IMG/VR virus record: IMGVR_UViG_3300030102_001784
Location: 1 to 61,976 of that record
Source: a virus
Lineage: Duplodnaviria; Caudoviricetes
Length of the DNA: 61,976 nt
Direction: 5' to 3' (one strand)
Both the position numbers and the translations under genes were made by a program. Position 1 is the stretch's first letter. Each line of letters opens with the position of its first letter. Positions 6,031-46,695 of this stretch are shown in pieces. A model generated the notes under the pieces. That model had not been told where the DNA came from, made no database searches, and saw only the letters and a program-made list of their open reading frames with translations.

Positions 6031-6256
6031 CTTTTTTTATTTCAGTGTAGCTACCATCTTTTAAGTCTATATTTATAGAACCATATTCTTCTTCAAGCTC
6101 TGATTTAGTTTTTTCTATTTCTTCACTTAAATGTTTTATTTCTGAAGCTACATTGTGTTTTTGTATCTCAAGCACACCTATTTTATTTAATAGATCTGCG
6201 AGTTTTGTTTGTTGATTAGTTATTTTATTTAACTGATCTTCTTTAATTTTTGCCAT
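6020..6256 (-). CDS. Hypothetical coiled-coil protein
   Basis: 78 aa with heptad pattern; first gene after the class II promoter at 6286-6313. Confidence 0.75.
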   Translation of the reverse strand: MAKIKEDQLNKITNQQTKLADLLNKIGVLEIQKHNVASEIKHLSEEIEKTKSELEEEYGSINIDLKDGSYTEIKKDAE

Positions 6257-6285
6257 TTTATTTAATTTAATTGTTTTATAACTTT

Positions 6286-6313
6286 ATAGTTACACTATTA
6301 TTTAGAAGTTTAC
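6286..6313 (-). promoter_or_regulatory. Class II (middle/late) phage promoter candidate
   Basis: GTAAA-N15-GTAACTAT in an intergenic gap; same geometry at five other sites. Confidence 0.7.
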
Positions 6314-6317
6314 TTTA

Positions 6318-8114: not shown

Positions 8115-8123
8115 TTTGTTTTT

Positions 8124-8285
8124 TTATTCTTTGACCATTAAGTCAGCGTTGTTTTCTGTTAACATAAAGTCTACTCCATTTTCTAATATAATGAAGTCTC
8201 CAACTGGTGGAGCTGTGCCACTACCTTGTGTTAGTGGTATTGCATCAATTGCTAGTGCAACCGCTATTGATAGAGGTGATCCCAT
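8124..8285 (-). CDS. Small structural-region protein (53 aa, not in the ORF track)
   Basis: MGSPLSIAVALAIDAIP...FMLTENNADLMVKE fills the gap between flanking genes. Confidence 0.65.
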   Translation of the reverse strand: MGSPLSIAVALAIDAIPLTQGSGTAPPVGDFIILENGVDFMLTENNADLMVKE

Positions 8286-8286
8286 T

Positions 8287-8808
8287 TTATCTTAGTGCTA
8301 ATATGTCTGAAGCTGATGTACCTGAATTAAGTACTCTTATTACTTGCAAAGGAACATATGAATTATTACCTACATTTTTTAATATTACAGGATTTTCACT
8401 TGAAGCTGGTATAACTGTTAGGTCTCCAGCTGTTCCTACAAACAAACTAAATCCTTCGTTACCAGATTTTCTATTTAAAAAACCACCTGATGCTCTATAT
8501 ATGTCGTAAGAAGTACCACCACCTGTTAATCCTGGTGCTGATAAAGTAAGTTTGATATTACTATCAACAACTTTTATTTGAGCTATGGTGCCTGTACTTG
8601 GTTCATATACTATATCTCCAGGTACTACTCTATTAGAATATCCTGTTCCAGCAGGATTAGTTTGACCGTCTCTGAAAGTTGCAGTAGCGTCATCTAATGT
8701 TGTTCCCGCGCCTGTGTTAGTTCCACTCAAATAACTTCCTGGTTCAGGAATATTTATTACATCATTAGGAACAACTGTTATTGCTTGTGTTGGTTGGTTA
8801 CTTGCCAT
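8287..8808 (-). CDS. Probable virion structural protein
   Basis: 173 aa, beta-rich and G/T-rich, within the tail gene cluster. Confidence 0.6.
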   Translation of the reverse strand: MASNQPTQAITVVPNDVINIPEPGSYLSGTNTGAGTTLDDATATFRDGQTNPAGTGYSNRVVPGDIVYEPSTGTIAQIKVVDSNIKLTLSAPGLTGGGTSYDIYRASGGFLNRKSGNEGFSLFVGTAGDLTVIPASSENPVILKNVGNNSYVPLQVIRVLNSGTSASDILALR

Positions 8809-8814
8809 TTTTTA

Positions 8815-9273
8815 TTATTTATTACTTATTGATTTAAATTTTTCTGCGCCTCGAGATCCAAAATAAGCCACATATACAGTTATTAAAAGTGATTTAAGTA
8901 AATCTACCCAACCACTGTCAACATCAAAATGTACATTAGAGCTTTCTAATATTATCAAAACAATTAAAGATATAGTTAAAAATATAAGCGCCATTGGCCT
9001 GGTGTTTTTGCTAAGCCATGAATCACTTTTCATATCACTAGCCCAACGCTTAGACACTTCTTGCATTTCTACCATATCTTGCTCTAATAACTTTAAAGCT
9101 TTCTCCTTGTCTTCAGGAGTTAAAACAACTGGATCTTCTTTGTTAATTAAGTTCTTTACAACACCTAATAATCCTCGATCAGGTAATACATCACCTACAG
9201 TACCAAGTATACTAGGCGCAGCTTTAGATAAAAACTTACCTACTTTAGTTTCTATAAATTTCTTTTTAGGCAT
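8815..9273 (-). CDS. Holin (GTA-type 3TM holin-like)
   Basis: Likely start MPKKKF at 9273; RWASDMKSDSWLSKNTRP followed by two hydrophobic helices and YFGSRGAEK. Confidence 0.75.
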   Translation of the reverse strand: MPKKKFIETKVGKFLSKAAPSILGTVGDVLPDRGLLGVVKNLINKEDPVVLTPEDKEKALKLLEQDMVEMQEVSKRWASDMKSDSWLSKNTRPMALIFLTISLIVLIILESSNVHFDVDSGWVDLLKSLLITVYVAYFGSRGAEKFKSISNK

Positions 9274-9583
9274 CTTTTGTCTTTTTGTAAGCTTCAGCTT
9301 CCCACGGTAAATCGTGAGCGCCTTCACTCATTTTAGATCTGGAATATTTTTTGCCTTTCCAATAAACGTAATCATTATCATAATCTAAATCACCACGTTT
9401 CATTTGATCAATATGTACCATTTCATGATCAATAACATCTTGAGTTTCTGAAGGTGATACATCTTTGTTAATAATAATTGTTAAATTATTATTGGCTTTA
9501 CCCATAACATCGTCTTCCATTTCAACATGATATATTGGAGTATTGTCTATTTTATATGGAGGATTGTTAAGTTTAAATGCCAT
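9266..9583 (-). CDS. Small zincin-like metallopeptidase
   Basis: HEMVH motif with downstream PWEAEA. Confidence 0.7.
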   Translation of the reverse strand: MAFKLNNPPYKIDNTPIYHVEMEDDVMGKANNNLTIIINKDVSPSETQDVIDHEMVHIDQMKRGDLDYDNDYVYWKGKKYSRSKMSEGAHDLPWEAEAYKKTKDA

Positions 9584-9744
9584 TATCTTCTATTTCTATA
9601 AGGAAACATTTTGTTTAAAGCTTCTTTTCGGCTTTCACAACCGCAAGGGATGTTTAGTCCCCTGCTCATTGTGTCTACCATTTTTTTGATACCAGTAGCT
9701 TTAGTAAACTTCTCTACGCTGTCTCCTAAACCTCTTGATTCCAT
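9583..9744 (-). CDS. Small Cys-containing protein (53 aa, not in the ORF track)
   Basis: MESRGLGDSVEKFTKATGIKK...PCGCESRKEALNKMFPY; coupled to both neighbours. Confidence 0.75.
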   Translation of the reverse strand: MESRGLGDSVEKFTKATGIKKMVDTMSRGLNIPCGCESRKEALNKMFPYRNRR

Positions 9745-9746
9745 AA

Positions 9747-10139
9747 TTATGCTACTACGAAGCTTCTAAAATATACTTTAAGAGCTGGGTCGTAAGCAGC
9801 TGTTGCGTCTGCTTGATCTTGCGGTAATCCACAAGTAGCTTTTACGCCTCCTGGGTTAGCAGTTAAAGCTCTATTAACTGATTGCTTTAATTTTGCTTGA
9901 TACCCTGTTGAAGCTGGTACAGCTGCATTAGGTGCATCTGATGTAGAAGTTGCAACAAGCGCTGTAGCTGTTTTTCCTCCTACTAATTCACATACTACTG
10001 CCATAGCCGTAGCTGTTACATTAGTAGAAATACTTAATACAGTATCTGCTAATAATAAGTTGTCTCCGTCCATTGCAGCGTCTGCTACTCCTGCAGCGTC
10101 AGCTCCATTAATTACTGGGAAATTAATCCATTTTGCCAT
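9747..10139 (-). CDS. Probable structural protein
   Basis: 130 aa, Ala-rich, in the late arm. Confidence 0.55.
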   Translation of the reverse strand: MAKWINFPVINGADAAGVADAAMDGDNLLLADTVLSISTNVTATAMAVVCELVGGKTATALVATSTSDAPNAAVPASTGYQAKLKQSVNRALTANPGGVKATCGLPQDQADATAAYDPALKVYFRSFVVA

Positions 10140-10178
10140 GATTTTTAATTTTTAATTGTTAATATTTGTTTTTGGTTT

Positions 10179-10469
10179 TTATTTAGTGCAATGTGACTTA
10201 ATAGGTGAACCACCCATTTTAGTTACATGTTTCGACATCCAAGACATATCTCTTCCACCTGTAGCATCTTTTACTACTGGCATGTCTTGCATTAAATCTT
10301 TTCTTTCTTGCTTTATTGATTCTCCTTTTCTTGTACCATAGTGGTGGTTTTCAAGTGCCGAATCATTATGATCCATTTTGTATGGACTCATTTGAGTAGC
10401 TGCTTTGTAATTCATATGAACCCCTGGTTTCATAGTCATACCATCTTTTTTTTCTTTCATTTCTTTCAT
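10179..10469 (-). CDS. Small basic SP-motif protein
   Basis: Contains MSPYKM and GSPIK; M/K/H-rich. Confidence 0.65.
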   Translation of the reverse strand: MKEMKEKKDGMTMKPGVHMNYKAATQMSPYKMDHNDSALENHHYGTRKGESIKQERKDLMQDMPVVKDATGGRDMSWMSKHVTKMGGSPIKSHCTK

Positions 10470-10480
10470 TTTTTATTTAT

Positions 10481-10786
10481 TTATTTATGATCTATATTGT
10501 TTTTTCTTGTAAATTCATCATGTAAATGAGCAGCAGATCCATGATGTTTTTTATCATATTTCATATCACCTGCTAGTTTAGAAATATGTTTTTCGTCAGC
10601 TGTCATTTTTTCATCATTATGACCATGATAAGCATCGTACAGCACGTCTCTTTTTAAATAGTCTATATGAGCAGCGTCATCTCTTTCAGTTGCTTTATAG
10701 TTTCCTTTAGTAACTCTTGTGTGGGCATGATCTTTAGACCATTTTGCGTTACCAGTATATTCACCCCAGTGTCCTTTGTGTTTCAT
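10481..10786 (-). CDS. Small His/Lys/Asp-rich protein
   Basis: 101-aa ORF coupled to its neighbours. Confidence 0.7.
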   Translation of the reverse strand: MKHKGHWGEYTGNAKWSKDHAHTRVTKGNYKATERDDAAHIDYLKRDVLYDAYHGHNDEKMTADEKHISKLAGDMKYDKKHHGSAAHLHDEFTRKNNIDHK

Positions 10787-11481
10787 GATTTTGAAGTATA
10801 TTTTTGAAATGCATTTTCTTTTTTTCCTTTATTACCAACGGCATATAAACCATCATCTAGTGTTTGTCCAAATTTGTAGTCAACACCTGCATCAGCAACA
10901 TCTCCAATTCTATTTCCTACTTTGTTAAAACTATCTTTTTCTTTTTCTGCTTGACCTTCCATAAATTCTTTAGTAGCTCCTTCTACTTTGTCAAACATGT
11001 TTTGATACAAGTCAGCTGTAGAAGCATAATCACTAGCGCTCATACCTCCGCCAACATATCCACCCATTTCTATAGGATTATTGTTTTTTTTTAATGGAGC
11101 CATTTCAGCAGCAGCGCCCCTAGCAGCATCTTCGTCTTCTCTTATTTGAGAATTATCTTCTTGTGTTCTAGGTGAATCGTGAGCAGCTTTAGCTTCTTTT
11201 ATTTCTTTTTTAATACTAGCAATAAGTTCATAGTCTTTATCTCCTTGCTCAGCGCCTATTATACCTTTTTGTGCTTTCTCTAATTTTTTCTCTAATTTTT
11301 TATGCTTATGGTATGGGCTCATTGTAGCTGCTGAATCAGATACGTTAAAAGTTTTATTTCCTACTTTAAAACTATTTTTACCTTTTTCTTTAGCATCGTT
11401 TAAAGCTGCATAAAAAGCGTTTTGTTGTAATACTGATATTGGATTTTTATCAGACATCTTTTTTCCAAATGGTGAATTCAT
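10783..11481 (-). CDS. Low-complexity SP-motif protein
   Basis: MNSPFGKK start; internal MSPYHK and MAPLKK. Confidence 0.7.
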   Translation of the reverse strand: MNSPFGKKMSDKNPISVLQQNAFYAALNDAKEKGKNSFKVGNKTFNVSDSAATMSPYHKHKKLEKKLEKAQKGIIGAEQGDKDYELIASIKKEIKEAKAAHDSPRTQEDNSQIREDEDAARGAAAEMAPLKKNNNPIEMGGYVGGGMSASDYASTADLYQNMFDKVEGATKEFMEGQAEKEKDSFNKVGNRIGDVADAGVDYKFGQTLDDGLYAVGNKGKKENAFQKYTSKS

Positions 11482-11672
11482 GATTTATTTTTATTCTTGT
11501 TTTTAATTATACCAAGATCAACCCCACCTGATGATACTATTTTATCATAGTTTACAGAAGAAACAGCGTGTAGCCTTTTCTTTTCTTCTTCAGTTAAAGG
11601 TTTTTCTTTTTTTTCTACTTTTTTAGGAGTTGGATTTTTGGCCATAAAATTTATAGCAAATGGAGAGCTCAT
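11478..11672 (-). CDS. Small basic SP-motif protein
   Basis: Starts MSSPFAINFMAKNP. Confidence 0.7.
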   Translation of the reverse strand: MSSPFAINFMAKNPTPKKVEKKEKPLTEEEKKRLHAVSSVNYDKIVSSGGVDLGIIKNKNKNKS

Positions 11673-11674
11673 AA

Positions 11675-11929
11675 TTAATCTTTTATTGGTCTTTCAGCAT
11701 CATCTGTTTTTTTGAGTTTGATTTTACCATCAACACACTCAAATTCATTTTTCTCTCTGTTATACTCTTTTAAATTAGCTTCAGCGCTAATAGGCTTTTC
11801 ATACTTCTCCATTTTACCATCAGCGTTTCTTCTCATTGATGTTTTGGATTTTCTTTTAGTGTAACCTTCTTTGAACTTTGCCCAAGCCGCTGTACACTTG
11901 TCTTGTTTAAATGGTGATTTAGATCTCAT
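11675..11929 (-). CDS. Small basic SP-motif protein
   Basis: Starts MRSKSPFKQ. Confidence 0.7.
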   Translation of the reverse strand: MRSKSPFKQDKCTAAWAKFKEGYTKRKSKTSMRRNADGKMEKYEKPISAEANLKEYNREKNEFECVDGKIKLKKTDDAERPIKD

Positions 11930-11930
11930 A

Positions 11931-12131
11931 TTAACTATTCGCGTGATATGCTGCTAGAGCTTTTTTAGCCTCTGATTCAGACTTAAAACCGCTTCTCCAC
12001 ACACCGCCTTTTTTATTGTTTAAAATAATATACTCGCCTCCTCTTTTTTTAATGCATCCACTACCGCCTTCAGACTCAGCACATCCTTTGCCGGCTTTTA
12101 AAAATGGACTACTAAACTGTGTATAACCCAT
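11931..12131 (-). CDS. Small basic SP-motif protein
   Basis: Starts MGYTQFSSPFLK. Confidence 0.7.
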   Translation of the reverse strand: MGYTQFSSPFLKAGKGCAESEGGSGCIKKRGGEYIILNNKKGGVWRSGFKSESEAKKALAAYHANS

Positions 12132-12340
12132 TATTTATATGCTTTAGCTCTTAGCGTAATTGGAACACCTGGTTCACAAACGCATGGATATTTAGATACT
12201 TGTAGACCTGTTATACCTGAACTAGATCCTACACCCATAGGAAAACCAACTTTACTTAATGGTCCGTCCCAAATAGCGTTTTCACCGATCTGCCCATCTA
12301 ACTTAGGGTTATTTTTAATTTTTTCAATATCGTGATTCAT
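12131..12340 (-). CDS. Hypothetical protein
   Basis: 69-aa ORF in a tightly packed operon. Confidence 0.7.
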   Translation of the reverse strand: MNHDIEKIKNNPKLDGQIGENAIWDGPLSKVGFPMGVGSSSGITGLQVSKYPCVCEPGVPITLRAKAYK

Positions 12341-13326: not shown

Positions 13327-13586
13327 GTCACTATAACTACATCCTGCGCTTTTATAACTCTATAAGATTTTTTATCTATTTCAATTTTGTGCCCAGCGTG
13401 TCTATCGTAAAATATAATATCATCGTTAGATACACCTTCAACTTGAGAACCAACAGAAACTACAGATGCTTTTACATATCTAATATCTTCTCTTTGGTTT
13501 TCTGAAAGAAGCAAACCACCTTTAGTTTTAGTAGTACCTTCTTTTTCTTTTTTTATTACTAAATTCCTACCTATTGCCTTCATCAA
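13323..13586 (-). CDS. groES: Co-chaperonin GroES
   Basis: TKTKGGLLL mobile loop, VVSVGS, C-terminal YRVIKAQDVV; adjacent to groEL. Confidence 0.9.
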   Translation of the reverse strand: MMKAIGRNLVIKKEKEGTTKTKGGLLLSENQREDIRYVKASVVSVGSQVEGVSNDDIIFYDRHAGHKIEIDKKSYRVIKAQDVVIVT

Positions 13587-15123
13587 TTCTTAAATTATTA
13601 ATTACACAATCAGTAGATAGTATCGTTGTTGCTACAGAAGCTGCGTTTTTAAGAGCGCTTTTAGTAACCAATAACGGATCAACTATACCATTATCGATCA
13701 TATTTACCATATTTCCTGTAACTACATTAATACCAATACCTTCTTCGCTTGGTGTTTTACTTTTATCGTAACCAGCGTTTGCTAGTATTGTGTTATAAGG
13801 AGATAATATAGCTTTACCTAAAACTTCTTCACCGACATTATTTTCTTTTACATTTAATGCAGCATTCAATAAAGCAATACCACCACCTGAAACTATACCT
13901 TCTTTAACCGCAGCTTTAGTAGCACAAATAGCGTCTTCGACTCTATCCATTTTTTCTTTTAATTCAATTTCAGAGTTAGCGCCTACTTTTACTATTGCTA
14001 TTTTAGCAGCTAACATCGCTAATCTTTTTTCAAGTCTTATAACTTGATTTGGATTTTTTTCTTTCAGTACTTTTTCTTTTATATCTTCAATTATAGCTTC
14101 TATCTCTTCAGATGCTTCATCTACTTGAAGTATTGTACTTTCATGAGTAGTAACACTTTTTAAACAAGTACCTAAATGATCAGCATTAATTACATCCATA
14201 TCATCACCAAGGTCTTCGTTTATTATAGTAGCACCAGTAAGCATTGATAAATCTTGAAGCATTTGCTGCTTGTTGATACCATATGTTGGAGCGTCTATAA
14301 CGTTTACTTTTATGTTACCTTTCATTTTATTCATTGCTAGAGCCGATAAAACACCTTGTTCTAAATCGCCTATAATAAGCAAAGGTTTGTTGTTTTTTAT
14401 TACGTACTCCAGCACTGACTGAATTTGTCTAATTGTATCTATAGGAGATTCAATTAATAATACTAGTGGATTTTCTAGTTCAGCAGCTTTGATTTGTTTA
14501 TTAGTTATAAAATGTGAGTTTTTTAATCCTTTGTCATATTGAACACCATCTATAACTTCAAAGCATGTATTACCATCAGCAGCTGTTTCCATCATTACAA
14601 CACCTGTGTTATCTACAGATTTAAAAGCATCAGCAATTATTTTACCAAGATCTTTATCATTATTCGTAGATATTGCAGCTACTTGTTCTAGCATATCATT
14701 TTTAACAGGAACAGACACAGATTCTAAATATTTTATTACTTTTTCAACAGCACTATTTATACCTTCTTTTAACTCCCTTGAATTAGTTTTATCAACTACC
14801 TTGTAAGCTTCTTCAAGTATAGCATGTGCAAGCACTGTAGCTGTAGTAGTTCCGTCACCAGCTTCTCTAACTGTTTTACGCGCTGCCTCTTTTAATAAGG
14901 TTGCGCCCATGTTTTGTACAGGATCTCTAAGTATTATAGAGTCTGCTACTGTTACACCATCTTTAGTTATAATTGGTCTTCCAGCATTATCTTCTAACAT
15001 TACACACTTACCGCTAGCTCCAAGTGTGGAGCTAACAGCATTTGTGAGTTTTGTTATACCTTTAAATACTTCTTCCCTAGCTTTGTCACCAAAGTTAAGG
15101 TTTTTGACTATTAAGTCTGACAT
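13567..15123 (-). CDS. groEL: Chaperonin GroEL
   Basis: ITKDGVTVA, AGDGTTTATVLA, EGIVSGGG and GIVDP motifs. Confidence 0.97.
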   Translation of the reverse strand: MSDLIVKNLNFGDKAREEVFKGITKLTNAVSSTLGASGKCVMLEDNAGRPIITKDGVTVADSIILRDPVQNMGATLLKEAARKTVREAGDGTTTATVLAHAILEEAYKVVDKTNSRELKEGINSAVEKVIKYLESVSVPVKNDMLEQVAAISTNNDKDLGKIIADAFKSVDNTGVVMMETAADGNTCFEVIDGVQYDKGLKNSHFITNKQIKAAELENPLVLLIESPIDTIRQIQSVLEYVIKNNKPLLIIGDLEQGVLSALAMNKMKGNIKVNVIDAPTYGINKQQMLQDLSMLTGATIINEDLGDDMDVINADHLGTCLKSVTTHESTILQVDEASEEIEAIIEDIKEKVLKEKNPNQVIRLEKRLAMLAAKIAIVKVGANSEIELKEKMDRVEDAICATKAAVKEGIVSGGGIALLNAALNVKENNVGEEVLGKAILSPYNTILANAGYDKSKTPSEEGIGINVVTGNMVNMIDNGIVDPLLVTKSALKNAASVATTILSTDCVINNLRIDEGNR

Positions 15124-17692: not shown

Positions 17693-17727
17693 TTACAGAC
17701 AGATTTTAGCTTTTTATAGATAATATA
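17693..17727 (+). promoter_or_regulatory. Class I (early) phage promoter candidate
   Basis: TTACAGAC-N17-AGATAATATA. Confidence 0.8.
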
Positions 17728-18002: not shown

Positions 18003-18037
18003 TTACAAACAAAACTAAACACATTACAGATAATATA
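18003..18037 (+). promoter_or_regulatory. Class I phage promoter candidate
   Basis: TTACAAAC-N17-AGATAATATA. Confidence 0.8.
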
Positions 18038-18518: not shown

Positions 18519-18553
18519 TTACAAATAAAACAAAATCACTATCAGATAATATA
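18519..18553 (+). promoter_or_regulatory. Class I phage promoter candidate
   Basis: TTACAAAT-N17-AGATAATATA. Confidence 0.8.
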
Positions 18554-18882: not shown

Positions 18883-18917
18883 TTACAAACAAAATATAAT
18901 TACTACAAGATAATATA
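18883..18917 (+). promoter_or_regulatory. Class I phage promoter candidate
   Basis: TTACAAAC-N17-AGATAATATA. Confidence 0.8.
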
Positions 18918-19838: not shown

Positions 19839-20018
19839 ATGAGTAAAATGGCAGAACTAGATTTGATTGCACAAGGTGTAGCAGATCACATTAAAGAAAT
19901 TATAGAAGACAGTGTCGATTGGCAGTTAGCTGATGTACCTCTTGATGGTGACGACTATAAAGACTGTAAAGAATATGTAATAAATGTTGCGCTTAACAAA
20001 TTATTACAAACAAAATAA
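19839..20018 (+). CDS. Early acidic hypothetical protein
   Basis: Likely start MSKMAELD within track ORF 19812..20018. Confidence 0.7.
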   Translation: MSKMAELDLIAQGVADHIKEIIEDSVDWQLADVPLDGDDYKDCKEYVINVALNKLLQTK

Positions 20019-20038
20019 TATCGCTAACAGATAATATA
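20004..20038 (+). promoter_or_regulatory. Class I phage promoter candidate
   Basis: TTACAAAC-N17-AGATAATATA. Confidence 0.8.
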
Positions 20039-20810: not shown

Positions 20811-20845
20811 TTACAAACACAATAAATACACTAAAAGATAATATA
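20811..20845 (+). promoter_or_regulatory. Class I phage promoter candidate
   Basis: TTACAAAC-N17-AGATAATATA. Confidence 0.8.
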
Positions 20846-24631: not shown

Positions 24632-25255
24632 TATGAAAGAAACATGAAATGGTTAAACGATCGTAGAATAAATTACAGGTGTAATCCTGTTAATGATAAA
24701 CCTACTATCGAAACCGCATTGTATAGTTACTATGAAAATGGTACATACGAATGTTATCACTTGTTTCGTAGTAAAGCAAAGATTACAACATATAAATCTT
24801 TGAAGTGGCATTTTTATGTTTTATATTATCTTAACCAAGACATGTATGAAGACAATAATGCTTTACCGTTTTTTCTATTATTTAAATTTATAGCCAACAA
24901 AGAAAATGGTTTTGTAACATTTTTTATAAGCGATAAAAAACTAGAAGAAATGATTAAAGATGTTCTTGATAATGGTGGTGAACCACCTGTAAACATGAAG
25001 CGTAAAATAATATTTAAAGACTATAGCGGTTTAACACCTAGCGAAAAAATGAGTATTGTTGGTAAACTTATTGGTAGATCTAGCTGTGTAGATGGTGAAG
25101 CAATTTATCAATGCATGCTAGATTTAAACGATATGGGTAAAACAATAACATGGGGTAGAATAGCAGGTTTATTAAACTGTTCTACTAGAACTATACAGCG
25201 TAATCTAAATGATTGCCTGAGAAAAGAAAAAGCAATATTAAATGAAGAAATATAA
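24626..25255 (+). CDS. C-terminal HTH DNA-binding protein, possible replication initiator/regulator
   Basis: ITWGRIAGLLNCSTRTIQRNL helix-turn-helix. Confidence 0.7.
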   Translation: MSYERNMKWLNDRRINYRCNPVNDKPTIETALYSYYENGTYECYHLFRSKAKITTYKSLKWHFYVLYYLNQDMYEDNNALPFFLLFKFIANKENGFVTFFISDKKLEEMIKDVLDNGGEPPVNMKRKIIFKDYSGLTPSEKMSIVGKLIGRSSCVDGEAIYQCMLDLNDMGKTITWGRIAGLLNCSTRTIQRNLNDCLRKEKAILNEEI

Positions 25256-26009
25256 CGTACAAAACTATATAAGGTACAAAGAGGATTTAAAACAATCTTT
25301 AGAAAGATTACCTGAACATGGAGTTGATTATAAAAAATATACTAGAGAAGAGCTTATAATAAAGTTTACACCTTTAGTTGAAAACTTAGGTCGTAAATTT
25401 TCTACAGCTCAACAAGCTTCAGGTGTTATGACTATAATGGATATAATACAATGTGGCGGTGAAGCTTTAACAAAAGCAATTGACAGAATAGAGTGGACAA
25501 AACTTTATGAATCAGACGACAAAGAAAAAACTTTAAAATCTTTTTTATCTAAAAGAATTAAAGGTGCTATACGTAGACGTATTGACATGGCTAGAGGTGA
25601 TATGCGTATACCAGAACACAAGTTAAATGAAATACGTAGAAATCCAAAAGATAAAAAAATGGTTGAAATATTTTTTAATAGCATATTTTTATCTATTGAT
25701 GCACAGGTTACTAACGATGATGAAGAAAATATGATGTATCAAATAGCGGATAAATCAGAGCCATATAACATACAGCTAATAAATGTATATTTAAAAGGTT
25801 TAATGCAAAAGCATTTAACTTATAATGAATACGAGGTATTAAGACTTAGCTATGGTCTTGACTGTGAAAAGCACTCTGCAAAGCAAATTGCTGAAAAGCT
25901 AAACATAAAAGGAGTTGGCAGTTATGTTAGAGTATCAGAGCTTAAAAAAGAAGCTGTACAAAAACTAATAGACAATGTTGATCACTCGCAAGTGCTTGAT
26001 ATAGTGTAA
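25242..26009 (+). CDS. Sigma-70 family RNA polymerase sigma factor
   Basis: Region 2 (REELIIKFTPLV...DIIQCG...LTKAIDR...IKGAIRR), MRIP, LSID, and region 4 (LTYNEYEVLRLSYGL...SAKQIAEKL...RVSELKKEAVQKL). Confidence 0.9.
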   Translation: MKKYNVQNYIRYKEDLKQSLERLPEHGVDYKKYTREELIIKFTPLVENLGRKFSTAQQASGVMTIMDIIQCGGEALTKAIDRIEWTKLYESDDKEKTLKSFLSKRIKGAIRRRIDMARGDMRIPEHKLNEIRRNPKDKKMVEIFFNSIFLSIDAQVTNDDEENMMYQIADKSEPYNIQLINVYLKGLMQKHLTYNEYEVLRLSYGLDCEKHSAKQIAEKLNIKGVGSYVRVSELKKEAVQKLIDNVDHSQVLDIV

Positions 26010-37901: not shown

Positions 37902-38057
37902 CTATTTTTTACCTCCACCAAATTTACTTGGTCCACCAGCTTTAGTACATCTCACACCCCATCCAGAAGCATATGCACTAGGCCAAACTTTAAATTTTCT
38001 TTTTGCAGCAGCTTTACAAGCTGAACTTATTTTACCATATAAAGGACTACTTTCCAT
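37902..38057 (-). CDS. Small basic SP-motif protein (51 aa, not in the ORF track)
   Basis: MESSPLYGKISSACKAAAKRKFKVWPSAYASGW... Confidence 0.7.
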   Translation of the reverse strand: MESSPLYGKISSACKAAAKRKFKVWPSAYASGWGVRCTKAGGPSKFGGGKK

Positions 38058-41000
38058 CTTTTTTCTTTTTTTGTAATTCAATTATTTTTTTAACTCTATC
38101 TTCTTCGTACTTAAGTTTTTTAAGCTCTTCTCTTGTTACACCTAAATCTAATAACATTTGTTTTTGTTGTTTAGCTGTAGTTTCTTTTTTCATATTAGTA
38201 ACATCTAACTCATATTGTTGTTCTGGCGTTAAAGGCTTTACAGGATCAAAACCACCATAATAACCTAATCCAACATCCCAAGTTGACCAACCTAAAGATA
38301 GAGCAAGTTTTTGCCAGTTTTGAGATCGTTCACTCATTATACCTCTAATGTTATTCATTTTTTGAATAGCTCTATCAAGCGGTATATTTGTTAAACCTGA
38401 TATAACTTGTGCACCCGCTAAATAAGCAGGGTTATCTAAGCTAAATCCTTTTTCTTTAATTAACTTTCTATCCCATGTAAATGTATTAGCAGCAACTCTT
38501 AATTTTCTAAACTTAGAATCAAGTGGTGGTGAAAAGTCAAACAAATCATAAACCGCTTTTACAAACTTAGGTGATTCGCTATTTAATTCTTTAGCTAAAG
38601 TTATTAATGAATTTTTAAGCGCTAATGTAGCCTTACCTTGTATACCTAAACCAGCTAATAAAGAATCAGCCATACCATTAGCTATTCTACCAGCTTTATC
38701 TTCTTTCTTTTTATCTTCTTCATCTTCACCAAAAGCTTCAGCAAATAAAGCGTTTTGTAAAGCATTAAATACTAAGTTTTGTACTACGCCATAAAAAGCT
38801 ATAGTACCTACATGCTTTTTCCAATCACCTCTACCATTAATTAAATCTTGCGTAGATCTTTTTATAATACGAGCATACTGCATTGGTGTATTTGCAAACG
38901 CAAGTATTACACGACCAGCTCCACTTGCTTGTTGCTGTGATATTTTACTTGGATTACTTGATTGCTGATTTTTCTCTGCAATAGCATAAAAATCTTCATA
39001 AGCCTTTTGCTGAGCTAATTCTTGATTCATGCCTTGATCTAAATACATATTTAGTTGGTTTCTATAAAAAGCAGCACCACCTGTTGCAATAGCAAAACTA
39101 TCTGCAAATCTAGTTAAAATAAAACCTTTATTTAACAAATAACTTAAAGCTGCTTTTGGTTTGTCAGAGCTTTCAGCAACTGCATCTGCTATTTCAGATT
39201 CACTTACATTTATTTTTAAACCATTACGTCTTTCAACTAAGTAAGGAGAGTTCATTAATGTTTTAAAATCTTTCCAATATTGCTTTTGATTAGCAAAAGC
39301 TTTAGCAGAGTTTATTAAACCGTTGTTACCAACACCAATAAAGTTAACTGCTGAAAGGGTCTGTAAGACGGCTGATCTAGTGTTTAAGAACATAATAGCA
39401 CCAACAGAATTATTAAGCCAGTCTAGGACTTGATTAACAACTCTAGAGCCACCAACAGGTCTGTTAGATCCTGATTTCATTCTACGTAATTGATCACGTA
39501 ATGCTTCTACATACTTAGGACCATAAGCAGCTTCTAGCTTATTCATATTTTTTTCAGAAAATATAATATCTACATTTTCTTGCCACTCTTGTAAATAAAG
39601 CTTTCTGTTTACTTTATTTATATCATTCAATATATCTGTAGTAATACTTCCACCTAACCAGTCTTTACCTGGCGCAGGATATGGCTTATCTTTTTGCATC
39701 TTTATAAGCTCATCAACAAACGTGTTCATTTCTGCATTTTTATCTACAATGTCATTTAAAGCTTTTAAATCTGTTTTAGATAAACCAGGTATAGTCATAC
39801 CTTGTCTAGTCCACGCTGCTACTCTTGCTGCTTGTGAAAAAGTAAAACCACCATAACCAACTTCTTTGTTTAAACTTTTTGGTAATGTTTTTAAATTTCT
39901 TTTTAGAGCTTTGAAATCGTTAGCAGCTTGTATTTTAGCTTTTGTAACAGCTAATTCTGCTCTGTCATACGGATCTAATAAATTTTTCTTATAAAAATCC
40001 ATTTGTGCGTCACCAACTTTTCCTTTACCTAGCGTTTTATATAATAAACCTAAAAAGTCTTCAGCTGAAGGTGTAGTAAAGAAACTAAATCTACCCTTTT
40101 TCTTACCTACAGTTTGAGCTTTTGCTGTTGAATATTCTTTAAAGCTTTCAATACCAGTAGAACTTTCTAATATATCATTGAATATTTTATCAAAAGTACT
40201 ACGTTTACTAAATTTAGCTAATTGAACTTCAGAATTAACATCTACTTGGCTTAAAACTTCTTGAACTGCTTCTACATTTTTAAGAGAATCGTCAGCAAAA
40301 TAAAAATCATTATAACCTTGTGCAGCTTTTTCCGCCATCCAATTACCTTTAGCAGAAGGTGATCCATCTTCTAAACCTGTTATGTTTTCAATAGGTAGGT
40401 TTAAACCAATACCATCTAAAAATGTTTTTATTGCTTGAGCTGACGCTTGTGGTCTTGCTGTTAATACAAATATGTCTTTACTACCAAATTTATCTTGACG
40501 TCTTAAAGCTAAGTCAGCTAATGGTCCTTTTAATGTTCCATCAGAAACTCCTTCAAAATTACTAAAGTCAAACGTAGCTCCATCAGCTTGTAAGTCGTTT
40601 GCCTGTACAGCAAATTCAGAAGCAGATATTTCTACAGTAGATCCATCTCTTTTATTAACTATTACTTTTTCTTTAGTTTTAGCAAGAGTATCGTCAAAAT
40701 CAAAAACACTAATACCTTTCTTAGGAGTATCTAAAGATCTAGCTTTTCTAGCAGCTTTATCATAAGTGTTCAATGTAGTTAATTGATCAGCGATTGTCAT
40801 CTCTGTGTTTACTTTATCACCAAACGTATTGTTGTTTGATTTACTAGCTTTAACTTCTAGCGCAGCAATAGGCTCATAAGCTTTTATTCTTGCTTTAGTA
40901 GTTTTTACATCTAAGTCATTATTTATTTGCTCACTTATTAAAGCGTTTTGAGCATAAACAATATTAGGATTTCTTTTACTAGCTTTTAAATCTACACCAA

Positions 41001-44000
41001 CACCCATTATATCAGCAAAACTTTTGCCTGATTTAAAATCATTAATAGTATTTAAGTTAATACCTGCGGCTGCTAATCTTCTTATACCTGCATTAGGTGT
41101 TGTAATATCAACTCCATCAGGTAAAGTAGAATCTAGTCCAGCTCTATCTATTTTTACATCATCTTTTTTAGATAATAATGTCTGCGTGTAATTGTCTCTA
41201 ATGCTAGGAAATATATTAGCAACTTGACCGTTTTTAATTGCCCATATTAAACTACCTCCAATAACTGAGGCTGGTGGACTATGCTCTTCTCTAAATGCTT
41301 CTTTGCCTCCAACTTGATTAGATTTACCTTTTTCTGCAAATTCAGGTTTTATAGATGCTGAATTAATAGGCGCAGCTATTTTAGTTAAACCTGTAGTAGC
41401 TTGATAAGATCCTTCTATTATAAGAGATGCAAACTGTATTGGCATACCATTAGCAACCATTGTTTCTAATCTAGTAGCTACAGACTCTAATATATCTTGA
41501 TTTATCTTAGCTTGATCTCTACCAGCTTTAGTATTAGCTTTTTTAGCAGGTACTCTTTTAGCTTTAGGTTTATTAGGATCTGTGTTAGCTTGAGCCGCTT
41601 GTCGAGCTGCTATATAAGCCGGATCAGATTTACCGTAATATAATCTGTTTCTATCAGCAACTAAGGTAACATCAGGGCCTGCAAAATCTTGCACTTCTTG
41701 AGCAGTTGGTGGACTAAATAATTTCTTACCACTAACTTTACTTACTCCTTTTGCTTTTCCTGGTATTGTTTTACCGTTACTTAAACTGTAAACAACATCA
41801 CCGTTTTCTAATCTTGTTCTTTGAGCACCTGAGTTTTGTAACATACCAGCGTCAAAAACATCTAAATCAAAATCAGTGTTAGTTTCTATTTGGTTTTGTA
41901 AATCTAATTGAACAGCTACTCTGTTTTTAGGTGTTATAGTTAAATTTTCTATACCTATTATTTTATTAACAGATTTTTTGTCTTTAGCGTTAGATATATC
42001 GTTTAATTCACTTTTACCTTTATCGCTATCTGCTGGTATTTGCTTGCTAAATTTAACACCTGTTGTTTTTCTTTCTAATACACTAGGTACTGCTTTTTCA
42101 AATATAAGATTTCTAAAAGACAATGATGCTAGTCCTTTTATAGTTTGAGCTTCTGCAGCTCTATATATAGGTTTTTGACTTGTTATGTCACCTAATAAAG
42201 CTTTATAGTCATTAAGTGTTTTGCTAGGATCTAACTTCCATTTACCTTTTCCATCTTTAACATATAAAGCATTTAGTATGTTATTAGGTATAAATGTAGA
42301 TTTACCTTTATCGTTATACGCGTTAGGTAGGTTTTTAAAATCTTGTTGAGCATTACTATTTAAATGCTGTTTTAAATTAACTAAGCCTTTTAAATCTTTC
42401 TTTTGTATGTTTTGTCTTTTATCTGTAAAAACTTTAGGATTAATACCAAAAGCTTGACCTAGCGTGTTTCCTAAACTTTCACCTATATTTCTTGTTTTAC
42501 CAAAATCTGAACCTACTGGTGCGCTTTTAAGGTCTTGCGCTATAGCCGTGTCTATTTCAGTAGCAACATCTTTACCACCCATGTTTTCAGTTAGAACACT
42601 AGAGTATTGTTTTGTTTTAGTAGGACTTTTAGGTTTACGTCTAACTTTTGGCGCAGTATCTATACTGGCATCAGTCTCTGTGTCAGCTGTGACACCAGCA
42701 GCTTCTGTTATATCAGTTTCAAAATCAGCCTTTGTACCAGCTCTACCTGTTTTAAATGTATTACCTATTTTATTACTTAACTGAGAATTAATCCAGCCAG
42801 ACAAACTGTTGTTTTGTTCTGGTTTAAAGTTTCTAATATGAGGTATTAATTCTACCATTGTGTTTTGAACAAAATCATCTTTGCTAAAACCTGGTGGTTT
42901 AACAGTAGGTATTTTACTTTCAATTAAACCTTGCAGCTTAGGTAAAACTTCTGTTATAACTTGATCAGCTTTACCAGCCTTCCATTCAGCATTAGTAACG
43001 TCATAGCTGCCATCTGCTTTTCTAGGACCAACAGAATCATTTACAGCGTCTTCTGCTTTAGACTCTTGAACTTTAGTTAGCGGCTTTGCTTTTGGTTTAT
43101 ATTCTCTTTTAACAAGCTCACCTTCAGCTCTACCATCTAATAAAGCTTGTTGAGCTTTATTTAATCCTTTTCCTTTTTCAATGCTTTTGTTGTAATCTTT
43201 TACAAAATTGTAAACATCTCTACCAGTATCAAATCTAATATTTTTTAAACCCGCTGCTTGTAATGTCCTTCTAAAAGCATCACCTATTTTTGTAAAGATA
43301 CTTTCATTAAACTTTATATCACCGTTAGCTATAGCGTCACTAAATATCGTTATAGCTTCTTCACCTTTTATAGCTTCTGGATCATTTTTATATGCTGCTA
43401 ATCTTTTACCATAAGCAGAGTCAGCATCTACTTGACTTATGTCTATGCCTTCTAAATATGTTTGTAAATTTTTACCTAAAGCTATTGCTGTGCCTTTACT
43501 ATTTTGTACAGTGTTTCTTAATACACTATGTAAAAACTCATGAGCAGCTACATTTACGTTAGAGTCTTTTAAAGATAATTCATTATTAATAAGTATACGT
43601 TCTTTTCCTGTTTTAGGATCAAACAAAACAACACCGTGATTAGCTGAATTTTTTTCCTGCCAACCATCTATTTTTTGTTCTTTAGCATATTGATTCATTG
43701 AAGCAGCATTGTTAAAATCTTGAAATTCAATATTGCCTTTACTTGCTTTTTCAATAGCTATTTTTACATTACCAGAGGTTTTAAACAAAGACTCTTGCTT
43801 CATTATATCTCTAAGTTCTGTTTTAACTTCTGCTAGTTCTGCTTTTTCTTCTTGCGTTAAGTCTTCATCTTTTACAGCCTCTATTTTCCTTGTAAGATTA
43901 TCTCTTTTAATCATCAAGTCAAGCATTTTTTCTCTTGTCTGCTTGTCAGCATTAGTTGGTATTTTATCACTAGCGTTTTTAATGTTAGCGATATTTATAG

Positions 44001-46695
44001 AATCTTCTTGATGTTGCTCTTTAGTGTAAGGTGTTCCGTCTGGGTTTTTACCTGTTTTTAGTTTTTTATCTAATGTATTTTGTGCATTTTTAAAAAACTG
44101 AGAATTTATTTCAGCCGAAGTACCAAAACCACTACTTGGAGCAAAATTTATAGCTACGTTTCTTGCTGCGTTTCTAATTTCAATTACGCTTTGTGAAGCT
44201 ACACTAGCACTAAAAGGCATCATAACACCAACTATACCACCAGCTTTAGCGCTATTCCAAGCAGCATTCATATCTAAATATCTACCAGTGCCTTGAGATC
44301 TACTGCCTTTAACCATAGAAGCTTGTCCTATTGCACCAATTATTTCTTGACTACCTTCAGTTATCATTTCAGTTAAACCAGCTTCTCCTTTGGCTAAAGC
44401 ACCAGAAACTAAGTTTTTACCGAATTGCTTAAAATCACCAGCTATAAGAGAAGCAAAACCACCTTTACCAACACCTAGCGCTTTTTGTGTTTTAGCTAAT
44501 ACTTTTCCAGCACCAATTTTTTCCATAGCTGTTTGAACAGCAGATGTAACAGCTGCTTTACCAGGATCGTGATACCTACCTGTCTGAAGACCTTCAACTA
44601 AAAAATCTCTTCTAGTTTCATCATCTGCATTACTCCAAGACCCAGCTCCGTTTTCTGCTTCATAATCTTCTTGAGCACCGGCTTGTGCTGCGCCAAAATA
44701 AGCATCACCATACATAGTTACACCCATTGTAACTGTACCTAAAGATCCTAAAATTACTGGTGCTAAAGTTCCACCAGAAGCAACAGAGGCTAATGTTCCA
44801 GCTGTTGCTAAACCTATTTGTGGTAAAGCTTCAGCGGTAGTTAATACTACATCACTCCAAGTTATATCGCCATCGTCTAGATCGGCTTGTTTATATTTTT
44901 GTAGATCAAGCTCTCCTTCTTCTATTTCATCTAAATTATTTTCTAAAGCTTTTACCCAATCTTTTTCTTCAAGTTCTAATTTTTTATAAGCTTCACTTAA
45001 TGGCATTTTTTTACCATAATAACTAACGATAGAGTCTTTATTTAATTTACCGCTTTTTTCAGCTTCCTGTAAACCTATTATTCTATCTCTTGCATTTTTA
45101 GCTCTTTGAGTATCATAGCTAGCTTGAAATTTATCAAAACCAGTTCCTATAGTAACAGTACCTTTTACAATACCTTCTGCTAAATCAGCGTTAGTTTCAG
45201 CAAGCCAATCCATACCTGGAACATTATTAAACACGTTCGAAGCATAATCTAAATTTCTTAAAAAAGTGCTTTGACTTCTTTTCCATGTGTTATTAGCTGC
45301 GGCAAAAGCTTCACTTCCTACAGCAGATATAGCGTTTACACGATTTCTATATTCAGGATTACCACCAATATCTTTAGTCATAATTTCTGAATAATAAGCT
45401 TCTAATTCTTTATTAGCTTTATCACTTTGAGCCGGATCGTCTAAATCATATTTTTCAGCTAATTCTTTTTGTTTTTCTGCTAGTAAAGGTTTAGCTCTTA
45501 ATTGAGCTTCTAATTGTATTTTTTGTATTAAAGGATCACTATCAACCTCTTGCTGTATGGCGTTGTTTAATTGTATCTCTAACTCTTCAGGACTTGTTTC
45601 TTCTGAAAAATTAATACCACTAGTATTTTCACTGTCGGAATTAATGTATTTAGAATTAAAAGTGTTTACAGCTTCAACAGTAGGAACTTGCTCGGTTGCT
45701 TTTACTATTCTATTTTCACCTGTAAAAAATTTAGAAAAACTACTTTCATCAGCTATTTCAAACTTTCCTTCGTCTAGAGAAGATTCTAGTTGTTTTCTCT
45801 CTTCATTAAGTTTATTCCACTCTTCTTCAGATAAAGTATTTTCTGCGTCAGCATATATTAAATTATTAGCTCTTACAGGGTTTCTACCTTCAGATTTTAA
45901 TTTTTCAAATAATTCATTATCTTGAGCAGAACCATAAGATCCTCTACCTCTAGAATAATTACCTTTATAGCCTTTATTAGGACTTAACTTATCTGTTAAC
46001 TCTTGCCACTTTTTATAGTTGTTATATTCTTCTGGACTACCAAAATCAGTTTCTTCAAGTTTTACATTTTCATCAAACACCTCTTTTTTGCCCTTACCTG
46101 TAGCAGCATCTTCATAAGTAACTTTTCTAGTTTTACTTCTCTTTATGTCTAATAACTGCTTATACCTATCAGCAGTATTAACATAATCAGTTTCTACTTC
46201 TTTTTGCTCTGTTAAAGGTTTTTGATTTTTTATTTGTGTGTTTAATTCCTCTAATTTCTTTAACTGTTCTTTGTCTGCAGCAGCTGCAGCATATTTTTTC
46301 TCAAAATAAGCATCTTTATCAAAAGTATTATGACCGAATTGCGAAGCAATAGAAACTTCAGCTATACCTGATGCTTTTATCCAATCACTATCACCTGCTT
46401 TTTTTGTATAATAAACACCCTTATCTCCTTCTACTTCATACTTATACTCGTAACCATCGTTTGGTTTATATGTTTGTCCTGGTTTAGCTTTTAAAGCATT
46501 TTCTTTATCAACTATAGTTTCATCAACAACATTACTTTCATTAGGTTCGTTGTTTTTTACTTCAACGTCTTCTTTAACCTCTTCAATATTTTCTTCTTGA
46601 GAATTATTTTTTTTAAATTCTTGCACTTTATCAAATATCTCTTGCTGAGATAATCCTTGATTTTGCAAAGAACTTACATATTCTAGTAATGTCAT
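38047..46695 (-). CDS. Giant multidomain (polyvalent) probable ejected virion protein: zincin, sigma-2-like, HNH-like and HAD modules
   Basis: HEFLH (43528-43542); DDFVQNTMVELIPHIRNFKPEQNNSLSGWIN (within 42751-42969); REEHSPP (~41283); FDFDDTL/LTAR/FADDS HAD motifs (40288-40701); located after tail and small ejection-like genes. Confidence 0.8.
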   Translation of the reverse strand: MTLLEYVSSLQNQGLSQQEIFDKVQEFKKNNSQEENIEEVKEDVEVKNNEPNESNVVDETIVDKENALKAKPGQTYKPNDGYEYKYEVEGDKGVYYTKKAGDSDWIKASGIAEVSIASQFGHNTFDKDAYFEKKYAAAAADKEQLKKLEELNTQIKNQKPLTEQKEVETDYVNTADRYKQLLDIKRSKTRKVTYEDAATGKGKKEVFDENVKLEETDFGSPEEYNNYKKWQELTDKLSPNKGYKGNYSRGRGSYGSAQDNELFEKLKSEGRNPVRANNLIYADAENTLSEEEWNKLNEERKQLESSLDEGKFEIADESSFSKFFTGENRIVKATEQVPTVEAVNTFNSKYINSDSENTSGINFSEETSPEELEIQLNNAIQQEVDSDPLIQKIQLEAQLRAKPLLAEKQKELAEKYDLDDPAQSDKANKELEAYYSEIMTKDIGGNPEYRNRVNAISAVGSEAFAAANNTWKRSQSTFLRNLDYASNVFNNVPGMDWLAETNADLAEGIVKGTVTIGTGFDKFQASYDTQRAKNARDRIIGLQEAEKSGKLNKDSIVSYYGKKMPLSEAYKKLELEEKDWVKALENNLDEIEEGELDLQKYKQADLDDGDITWSDVVLTTAEALPQIGLATAGTLASVASGGTLAPVILGSLGTVTMGVTMYGDAYFGAAQAGAQEDYEAENGAGSWSNADDETRRDFLVEGLQTGRYHDPGKAAVTSAVQTAMEKIGAGKVLAKTQKALGVGKGGFASLIAGDFKQFGKNLVSGALAKGEAGLTEMITEGSQEIIGAIGQASMVKGSRSQGTGRYLDMNAAWNSAKAGGIVGVMMPFSASVASQSVIEIRNAARNVAINFAPSSGFGTSAEINSQFFKNAQNTLDKKLKTGKNPDGTPYTKEQHQEDSINIANIKNASDKIPTNADKQTREKMLDLMIKRDNLTRKIEAVKDEDLTQEEKAELAEVKTELRDIMKQESLFKTSGNVKIAIEKASKGNIEFQDFNNAASMNQYAKEQKIDGWQEKNSANHGVVLFDPKTGKERILINNELSLKDSNVNVAAHEFLHSVLRNTVQNSKGTAIALGKNLQTYLEGIDISQVDADSAYGKRLAAYKNDPEAIKGEEAITIFSDAIANGDIKFNESIFTKIGDAFRRTLQAAGLKNIRFDTGRDVYNFVKDYNKSIEKGKGLNKAQQALLDGRAEGELVKREYKPKAKPLTKVQESKAEDAVNDSVGPRKADGSYDVTNAEWKAGKADQVITEVLPKLQGLIESKIPTVKPPGFSKDDFVQNTMVELIPHIRNFKPEQNNSLSGWINSQLSNKIGNTFKTGRAGTKADFETDITEAAGVTADTETDASIDTAPKVRRKPKSPTKTKQYSSVLTENMGGKDVATEIDTAIAQDLKSAPVGSDFGKTRNIGESLGNTLGQAFGINPKVFTDKRQNIQKKDLKGLVNLKQHLNSNAQQDFKNLPNAYNDKGKSTFIPNNILNALYVKDGKGKWKLDPSKTLNDYKALLGDITSQKPIYRAAEAQTIKGLASLSFRNLIFEKAVPSVLERKTTGVKFSKQIPADSDKGKSELNDISNAKDKKSVNKIIGIENLTITPKNRVAVQLDLQNQIETNTDFDLDVFDAGMLQNSGAQRTRLENGDVVYSLSNGKTIPGKAKGVSKVSGKKLFSPPTAQEVQDFAGPDVTLVADRNRLYYGKSDPAYIAARQAAQANTDPNKPKAKRVPAKKANTKAGRDQAKINQDILESVATRLETMVANGMPIQFASLIIEGSYQATTGLTKIAAPINSASIKPEFAEKGKSNQVGGKEAFREEHSPPASVIGGSLIWAIKNGQVANIFPSIRDNYTQTLLSKKDDVKIDRAGLDSTLPDGVDITTPNAGIRRLAAAGINLNTINDFKSGKSFADIMGVGVDLKASKRNPNIVYAQNALISEQINNDLDVKTTKARIKAYEPIAALEVKASKSNNNTFGDKVNTEMTIADQLTTLNTYDKAARKARSLDTPKKGISVFDFDDTLAKTKEKVIVNKRDGSTVEISASEFAVQANDLQADGATFDFSNFEGVSDGTLKGPLADLALRRQDKFGSKDIFVLTARPQASAQAIKTFLDGIGLNLPIENITGLEDGSPSAKGNWMAEKAAQGYNDFYFADDSLKNVEAVQEVLSQVDVNSEVQLAKFSKRSTFDKIFNDILESSTGIESFKEYSTAKAQTVGKKKGRFSFFTTPSAEDFLGLLYKTLGKGKVGDAQMDFYKKNLLDPYDRAELAVTKAKIQAANDFKALKRNLKTLPKSLNKEVGYGGFTFSQAARVAAWTRQGMTIPGLSKTDLKALNDIVDKNAEMNTFVDELIKMQKDKPYPAPGKDWLGGSITTDILNDINKVNRKLYLQEWQENVDIIFSEKNMNKLEAAYGPKYVEALRDQLRRMKSGSNRPVGGSRVVNQVLDWLNNSVGAIMFLNTRSAVLQTLSAVNFIGVGNNGLINSAKAFANQKQYWKDFKTLMNSPYLVERRNGLKINVSESEIADAVAESSDKPKAALSYLLNKGFILTRFADSFAIATGGAAFYRNQLNMYLDQGMNQELAQQKAYEDFYAIAEKNQQSSNPSKISQQQASGAGRVILAFANTPMQYARIIKRSTQDLINGRGDWKKHVGTIAFYGVVQNLVFNALQNALFAEAFGEDEEDKKKEDKAGRIANGMADSLLAGLGIQGKATLALKNSLITLAKELNSESPKFVKAVYDLFDFSPPLDSKFRKLRVAANTFTWDRKLIKEKGFSLDNPAYLAGAQVISGLTNIPLDRAIQKMNNIRGIMSERSQNWQKLALSLGWSTWDVGLGYYGGFDPVKPLTPEQQYELDVTNMKKETTAKQQKQMLLDLGVTREELKKLKYEEDRVKKIIELQKKKKDGK

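Follow-up and report, generated by a model that had tools for sequence, protein, structure and literature searches.

The locus described here raises the question of whether a phage can bring a transcription initiation module into its host as part of a virion protein. The window, that is, the whole stretch of DNA that was analyzed, is the virus record IMGVR_UViG_3300030102_001784 (61,976 bp, 96% complete according to CheckV). It contains a giant gene, a single open reading frame (ORF) at 38047..46695 on the minus strand, for a multidomain protein of the polyvalent type with 2882 amino acids (aa), P0001. An earlier note on this DNA had claimed that P0001 carries a sigma-70 region-2-like domain at aa 1243-1315, and that this domain could be injected with the phage DNA to redirect the host RNA polymerase (RNAP) to six early promoters. 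The structural part of the claim stands, as the domain is very probably a true homologue of sigma-70 region 2 (sigma-2), and it adjoins a zincin-like metallopeptidase region. Judged from its sequence, P0001 belongs most naturally with the 'polyvalent' giant proteins of phages and has an apparently new architecture, in which a zincin-sigma-2 cassette occupies the middle of the chain. The functional part of the claim, that the module would be delivered with the virion and would then act on the host enzyme, is given somewhat less than an even chance.

Sequence and Fold of the Sigma-2 Module

The sigma-2 module is located at aa 1228-1330 of P0001 (42706..43014, minus strand) and is identified by Pfam, NCBIfam, PDB profile and AlphaFold2/Foldseek searches as a three-helix module similar to region 2 of sigma-70. 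The segment indicated by the earlier note (42751-42969, minus strand, aa 1243-1315) lies inside it and has the quoted peptide, ADQVITEVLPKLQGLIESKI...SNKIGNTFK. The module is somewhat wider than these coordinates, covering about aa 1228-1320, with helix 1 beginning at aa 1235. The Pfam model Sigma70_r2 matches the whole of P0001 with an E-value of 0.0024 (18.1 bits), a 361-aa piece with 0.00027 (21.1 bits) and the 103-aa module with 3.4e-5, the last score of 24.0 bits being equal to the gathering score of 24. Among the PHROGs, phrog_1740, annotated as 'RNA polymerase sigma factor', is matched at E 3.1e-4. All 15 NCBIfam families listed for the module are sigma factors; the best is TIGR02937 (E 3.5e-5), with 23.5 bits, below the cut-off of 42.9 that applies to full-length members.

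The relatives of the giant protein extend this evidence beyond a single sequence. They comprise 294 proteins of 1585-5044 aa found at E<=1e-3, together with 80 IMG/VR loci. A hidden Markov model of the module detects it in 67 of 81 loci, and the 60 sequences kept after dropping those more than 90% identical, with the copy of the window added, form an alignment of 61 sequences (A2). Taken singly, 12 of these 61 members match Sigma70_r2 at E<=0.1 (best 1.3e-6), against three for the runner-up family. When the A2 profile is compared with all PDB sequences, eight of the 11 matches at E<=10 are sigma factors, including the top six, and the best of them is the N-terminal domain of SigE (8b3z_A, E 1.3e-4, profile positions 20-98). 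The three matches that are not sigma factors have E-values of 0.39-0.76.

The predicted fold leads in the same direction. AlphaFold2 with A2 gives a model with a mean predicted local distance difference test score (pLDDT) of 83.3 and a predicted template modelling score (pTM) of 0.72, in which helices span aa 1235-1259, 1272-1288 and 1298-1315. A Foldseek comparison of the fold, which the earlier note had proposed as a check, lists 44 rows from the PDB, all of which are sigma chains or complexes that contain a sigma factor. The best of them, 8b3z_B, has an E-value of 0.02, a TM score of 0.76 and an rmsd of 2.3 Å over 78 columns. The positions most conserved across the 61 copies are F/Y1290 (60/60), P1292 (52/59), L1298 (59/61), G/A1300 (60/61), W/Y/F1301 (61/61), I1302 (51/61), N1303 (52/61) and K/R1309 (59/61); N1308 is kept in 38/61. 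We take F/Y1290 and P1292 to mark the end of region 2.2 and the helix at aa 1298-1315 to correspond to regions 2.3-2.4, and the aromatic residue at 1301 is presumably the equivalent of Y430 of sigma-70, in the register and numbering that we assume for that protein. Because the Pfam, NCBIfam, PDB profile and fold searches all point to sigma factors, there is little doubt about the homology of the module with sigma-2.

The module is widespread. A search of 1.84 billion representatives with the A2 profile yields 603 clusters (at 50% identity) with E<=1e-3 and 344 with E<=1e-10. The source of the family, all of it uncultured, is marine metagenomes, and none of its proteins has been named. The best 150 matches are mostly proteins of 2000-3600 aa with the module in mid-protein. 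A stand-alone module was not found among these matches: six of the ten short ones that were checked lie on contigs of 647-2487 bp and are fragments, while the other four came without contig data. One family member, P0307 (in the cluster of P0133), is a protein of 2102 aa on a contig of 213,862 bp and could be a prophage or host-linked copy.

The Zincin-Like Region and Its Linkage to the Module

The region that directly precedes the sigma-2 module, aa 962-1227 (43015..43812, minus strand), resembles a zincin metallopeptidase of the gluzincin type. Its HEFLH motif is at aa 1052-1056 (43528-43542) and its third-ligand Glu at aa 1113. Of 60 loci, 55 have a single HExxH motif at a distance of 144-350 aa before the sigma-2 module, and in the corresponding alignment of 55 zincin sequences (A6) the two His residues, the Glu between them and the Glu 57 residues downstream are invariant in all 55. 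This linkage, together with the invariant residues, identifies the zincin-sigma-2 cassette, in which sigma-2 comes 145-250 aa after the peptidase, as the conserved unit, and the zincin looks catalytically intact by the same residues. Seven of the 55 zincin regions weakly match Peptidase_M78, an IrrE/ImmA-like family whose members cleave transcription regulators. A search of the zincin region against PDB sequences gave no match.

A short motif, K[AF]SK, may be related to the activity of this enzyme. It occurs five times in the giant protein, at aa 983, 1548, 1904, 1949 and 2161 (43738-43749, 42043-42054, 40975-40986, 40840-40851 and 40204-40215, minus strand), where 0.26 copies are expected and none of 2000 shuffles reached five. 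Two of the copies end recognizable modules, one just past the helical module that follows sigma-2 (module B) and the other just past a stretch similar to haloacid dehalogenase (HAD) phosphatases. The K[AF]SK copies are possible processing sites for the internal zincin.

Early Promoters and the Stand-Alone Sigma Factor

The six early promoters named by the earlier note (class I) exist, on the plus strand at 17693-17727, 18003-18037, 18519-18553, 18883-18917, 20004-20038 and 20811-20845. They follow the pattern TTACAAAC.AAA...N...AGATAATATA, in which TTACA.A.A.A and AGATAATATA are invariant in all six. The -7 box of Bacteroidota is TAnnTTTG (PMC7641319, in part), and the class I promoters do not match it. 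The corresponding host-type pattern, TTG-N17-21-TAnnTTTG, occurs at ten sites of the window against 7.9 +/- 3.1 expected, and none of them is on the plus strand of the early region. The class I promoters precede the gene for a stand-alone phage sigma factor of 255 aa (25242..26009, plus strand; phrog_351, E 7.9e-16), which has its own sigma-2 and sigma-4. Its PDB matches are all sigma factors, with region 2 at aa 14-135, and TIGR02937 spans aa 35-242. Since these early promoters are not of the host type and lie upstream of the sigma gene, the chicken-and-egg logic of the earlier note is sound.

The same arrangement is found in related phages. In five relatives of about 63-69 kb (G001-G005, loci L084-L103) the class I promoter (TACAAAC.AAAT...GATAATATA) recurs near letter-for-letter, in 4-7 copies, and with the window (G000) included, the -10-like GATAATATA and the upstream TACAAAC are invariant across six genomes. 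Most of the proteins of these phages are far less conserved than the promoter. A homologue of the stand-alone sigma factor is present in all five near-complete related contigs, with 54-89% identity. The early region is missing from five further relatives (G006-G010, 64-77% complete), which are uninformative about covariation between module and promoter. The more distant phage MW202828 (TerL 62% identical) has neither the giant family nor the sigma factor nor the promoter word. In G004 (L096, L099) the sigma gene and a helix-turn-helix (HTH) gene occur twice, at 3695-4441 and 64909-65655, near both ends of the 66,408-bp contig. The likely cause is a terminal repeat or, in a circularly permuted genome, overlap of the assembled ends.

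Comparison with Known Systems

The cellular sigma-70 domain 2, represented by SigE (8b3z) and by the extracytoplasmic function (ECF) family TIGR02937, provides the best sequence and fold matches, and the F-x-P, aromatic and Asn landmarks are common to both. However, the P0001 module is not a free protein, is without sigma-4 and scores below the cut-offs of the full-length families. The closest phage parallel is T4 gp55, a factor consisting of sigma region 2 only, which attaches to the beta-prime clamp helices and recognizes a -10-like element by itself (PMC7892883, in part). The module discussed here is also reduced to region 2, without sigma-4, and the early promoters of the window carry a long invariant -10-like element. 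In contrast, gp55 is a free protein of about 185 aa, made during infection, that contains a helix-loop-helix as well as a motif for binding the sliding clamp and acts together with gp33 and gp45, whereas the module forms aa 1228-1330 of a late protein of 2882 aa, beside a zincin. The gp55 family is absent among the Pfam and PHROG matches of the module.

The giant protein itself is most similar to the polyvalent proteins of Iyer et al. (2017), which are giant, multidomain and encoded among the late virion genes. Zincin metallopeptidases (MPTases) are their commonest domain and are proposed to process the protein itself or to act on host proteins, and modules for jump-starting transcription are also included (PMC5512222, in the sections available). 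P0001 has the same size class and multidomain organization, the same location among late genes and the same zincin signature of HExxH with a downstream Glu. The word 'sigma' occurs 0 times in the main text of PMC5512222, and its supplementary domain tables could bear on this point. In the available part of a survey of jumbo phages (PMC7824862), sigma factors appear only as free proteins. With the exception of supplements, and within the portions of the literature available, no report was found that describes a virion or polyvalent protein with a domain similar to sigma.

Other phages deliver transcription functions by different means. N4 packages its virion RNAP, gp50, which is itself counted among the polyvalent proteins, and crAss-like phages likewise package an RNAP; P0001 differs from them in having no RNA polymerase domain (no RNA polymerase family is among its Pfam matches at E<=10), its transcription-related module being a sigma-2 homologue. 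T4 Alt is a packaged ADP-ribosyltransferase that modifies host RNAP (PMC5512222, same sections), and it provides a precedent for a virion-delivered protein that reprograms the host RNAP at infection. However, Alt is an enzyme acting on the alpha subunit of RNAP, while the candidate contact with RNAP in P0001 is a non-enzymatic sigma-2 fold.

Proposed Mechanism and Alternative Explanations

In the mechanism that we favor, the giant protein would travel in the virion and enter the cell with the DNA, where its own zincin may separate the modules from one another at the K[AF]SK sequences that flank them. The sigma-2 module would then dock on the beta-prime clamp helices of the host core RNAP and give the incoming genome first call on the enzyme. 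Two modes of action appear possible after docking. The module could serve as a minimal specificity subunit, like gp55, for the GATAATATA early promoters, or it could compete with the host sigma-A and tether RNAP at the site of entry, and we lean weakly towards the minimal specificity subunit. The probability of the whole chain, from delivery of the module to its docking on host RNAP, is estimated at about 0.45. Co-folding of the module (with A2) and residues 180-400 of RPOC_FLAJ1 gave a score of 0.19 (mark 0.32), which tips the question of binding neither way. If the module binds RNAP, it would represent a new route by which a phage without an RNA polymerase of its own starts transcription from non-host promoters, and it would add a transcription module to the domain catalogue of polyvalent proteins.

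Several results weigh against this mechanism. No Foldseek match of the module reaches E<=0.001, although these weak E-values are a consequence of the small size of the domain. In the register and numbering that we assume for sigma-70, the module seems to lack the tandem Trp that serves as the melting motif of region 2.3. Regions 2.2-2.4 of the module family and of the phage's own sigma factor align in register in hhalign, without significance (probability 0.7% against the single phage sequence and 2.2% against an alignment of five). The Pfam scan of P0001 contains no region 3 or region 4, and none of the 61 segments of 380 aa downstream of the module matches Sigma70_r3 or Sigma70_r4 at E<=0.05, in agreement with the caveat of the earlier note that no region-4 HTH could be seen downstream. 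In the phage collection, from which records near the window were possibly omitted, no cultured relative of the giant protein was found, with no match for a fragment of it, for its C-terminal 783 aa or for the DNA; the stand-alone sigma factor has no match there either. The most sceptical explanation of such weak signals is that a generic helical segment resembles the sigma models by chance, as single-sequence scores of 18-24 bits lie at or below the curated cut-offs, the Foldseek E-values are 0.02 or higher and hhalign is not significant. It is extremely improbable, since 12 members match the same Pfam family and the 15 NCBIfam families, the top six PDB matches and the 44 fold rows are all sigma factors, in the same register throughout. 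A less radical alternative accepts the homology and supposes that the fold has been exapted for a role outside RNAP, such as an intramolecular or assembly contact inside the capsid or ejection channel, an appendage of the zincin for regulation or recognition of its substrate, or binding of single-stranded nucleic acid or DNA ends. No free form of the module has been found, since most of the best 150 matches are giant proteins and the short ones checked that had contig data are fragments, and the module adjoins the zincin in 55 of 60 loci. The core-binding residues of region 2.2, compared with those we take to be characteristic of sigma-70, are only partly retained, and the comparison with the sigma factor that the phage itself encodes is not significant. 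On the other hand, to our knowledge, sigma-2 domains are essentially confined to free sigma factors, the most conserved positions of the module are precisely the sigma landmarks, and the matches are sigma-specific in four independent libraries, so exaptation is considered unlikely. Even without binding to RNAP, an exapted sigma-2 fold and the confidently folded module B next to it would both be worth recording.

If the module does reach the host RNAP, it remains to be asked what it does there. As the earlier note envisaged, it could be a true injected sigma factor. It would then be packaged, released from the virion protein by the neighboring zincin and active as a sigma-2-only initiation factor, which would read AGATAATATA in the manner of gp55 and bring host core RNAP to the six class I promoters. 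All the evidence for sigma-2 homology agrees with this idea, and so does the nature of the promoters, which have a long invariant -10-like element, lack the host -7 box and precede the stand-alone sigma gene; gp55 is the precedent for recognition of promoters by sigma-2 only (PMC7892883, in part). The conserved polar residues N1303, N1308 and K/R1309 on the helix equivalent to regions 2.3/2.4 seem to leave some room for promoter reading. Module, promoters and sigma gene also occur together in all five near-complete relatives and are jointly missing from MW202828, a correlation that is weak because it concerns one clade. However, the copies of the module in L007, L041, L045 and L070 are only 18%, 37%, 20% and 28% identical to that of the window, while TerL of the same relatives is 72-75% and the stand-alone sigma factor 52-72% identical, and no covariation of module and promoter is seen across G000-G005. 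An invariant promoter combined with a module that has diverged to 18-37% identity weighs against the module as its reader. Furthermore, the TACAAAC element lacks an identified reader, module B being present in only 16 of 61 relatives and without a match to a DNA-binding fold, and there is no sigma-4. On balance, an injected sigma factor is considered plausible but rather doubtful. If true, it would be the first of its kind, widespread in marine Flavobacteriia podoviruses, and a third solution beside the packaged RNAPs of N4 and crAss-like phages and RNAP-modifying enzymes such as T4 Alt. Alternatively, the module could be an effector of RNAP take-over that occupies the beta-prime clamp helices, blocks sigma-A and may bring the zincin to RNAP or sigma-A for cleavage of a host transcription protein. 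The pairing of zincin and sigma-2 in 55 of 60 divergent loci with invariant catalytic residues, the weak similarity of seven zincins to Peptidase_M78 and the proposed action of MPTases on host proteins (PMC5512222, as above) are consistent with such an effector, and the fast divergence of the module would suit a protein in conflict with the host. The linkage to the zincin is explained equally well by self-processing, however. The beta-prime clamp helices are highly conserved, so that a protein binding them has no obvious reason to diverge, and the take-over effector is rated unlikely as well.

Module B and Other Parts of the Giant Protein

Module B (aa 1349-1555; 42031..42651, minus strand), which follows the sigma-2 module on its 3' side, is predicted to be mostly helical with a pLDDT of 91.4. 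It has no significant match among PDB sequences, and the best Foldseek probabilities are 0.06 in the PDB and 0.10 in BFVD, raising the possibility that it may be a new fold. Its identification as sigma-3, sigma-4 or an HTH domain was rejected, because neither PDB sequences nor PDB folds nor BFVD gave a match and the search for regions 3 and 4 was negative in all 61 segments. A weak match to L544_NTransf (E 0.01) received no support from the fold search. In two relatives, weak Sigma70_r4-like matches of 13-14 bits are present inside the giant ORFs (G007:C1:32868-32951, plus strand, and G008:C1:3793-3852, minus strand), one about 200 aa upstream and the other about 220 aa downstream of the sigma-2 module; neither of them recurs in the Pfam scan of the downstream segments.

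The remainder of P0001 has features of several kinds. Gly/Ala-rich and moderately hydrophobic segments are located at aa 634-662 and 820-838. An FDFDDT motif at aa 1998-2003 (40687..40704, minus strand), read from the sequence only, is followed by VLTAR and FADDS in the stretch down to about 40215, and we take this series to resemble the motifs of HAD phosphatases, with FDFDDT as the DxDxT motif I; the region has no Pfam match. P-loop kinase domains of the AAA_33/Zeta_toxin type are found in the C-terminal halves of two of the three relatives scanned, and these domains together with the HAD-like motifs give hints of an effector set similar to polynucleotide kinase/phosphatase. The C-terminal part of about 720 aa (38050..40215, minus strand) is the most conserved of the family, as judged from the consensus and near-invariant columns of the family alignment A1. 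LPD38/LPD39 clusters are among its neighbors in the ESM Atlas, but they are no more than a lead, as HMMER did not confirm them; a search of the genome for PF18857 and PF18858 was negative. The Pfam scan of P0001 at E<=10 contains none of the polyvalent-associated domains (LPD families, MuF, ART and others), and the whole protein has no match in the PHROGs at E<=0.1.

Genome Context and the Late-Operon Slot

The giant gene is on the same strand as the genes for Portal and TerL. The genome also codes for a primase/helicase, a ribonucleotide reductase (RNR), a ligase, MazG and a GroEL-like chaperonin (13567-15123, minus strand; phrog_5725, E 1e-132). GroEL or GroES genes are present too in MW202828 and phi38:1. 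The 87 TerL relatives in the phage collection are records of Flavobacterium (68), Cellulophaga (15), Tenacibaculum (2), Maribacter (1) and an uncultured podovirus (1), and since most of them are from Flavobacterium and Cellulophaga, a Flavobacteriia host and a podovirus morphology are reasonable inferences for the phage of the window.

The earlier note had assigned the giant gene to the slot of podoviral ejection proteins, and this assignment is borne out as far as position is concerned. The gene is the last of the late structural operon, six of the ten genes upstream of it match tail or 'virion structural protein' PHROGs, and gp101 of the Cellulophaga phage phi38:1 (1691 aa), encoded by the last large gene in a syntenic late operon, is annotated as 'structural protein'. 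However, P0001 is not homologous to gp101 or to the 3859-aa protein that MW202828 encodes in this slot. The argument from the slot is therefore positional only. In the genomes compared, the slot genes are at 741-12320 of MW202828.1 (L082, 3859 aa) and at 67422-72497 of NC_021796.1 (L118, 1691 aa). The end of the late operon acts like an exchangeable cassette in these related podoviruses, where a giant gene is kept and its sequence is unrelated from one phage to the other.

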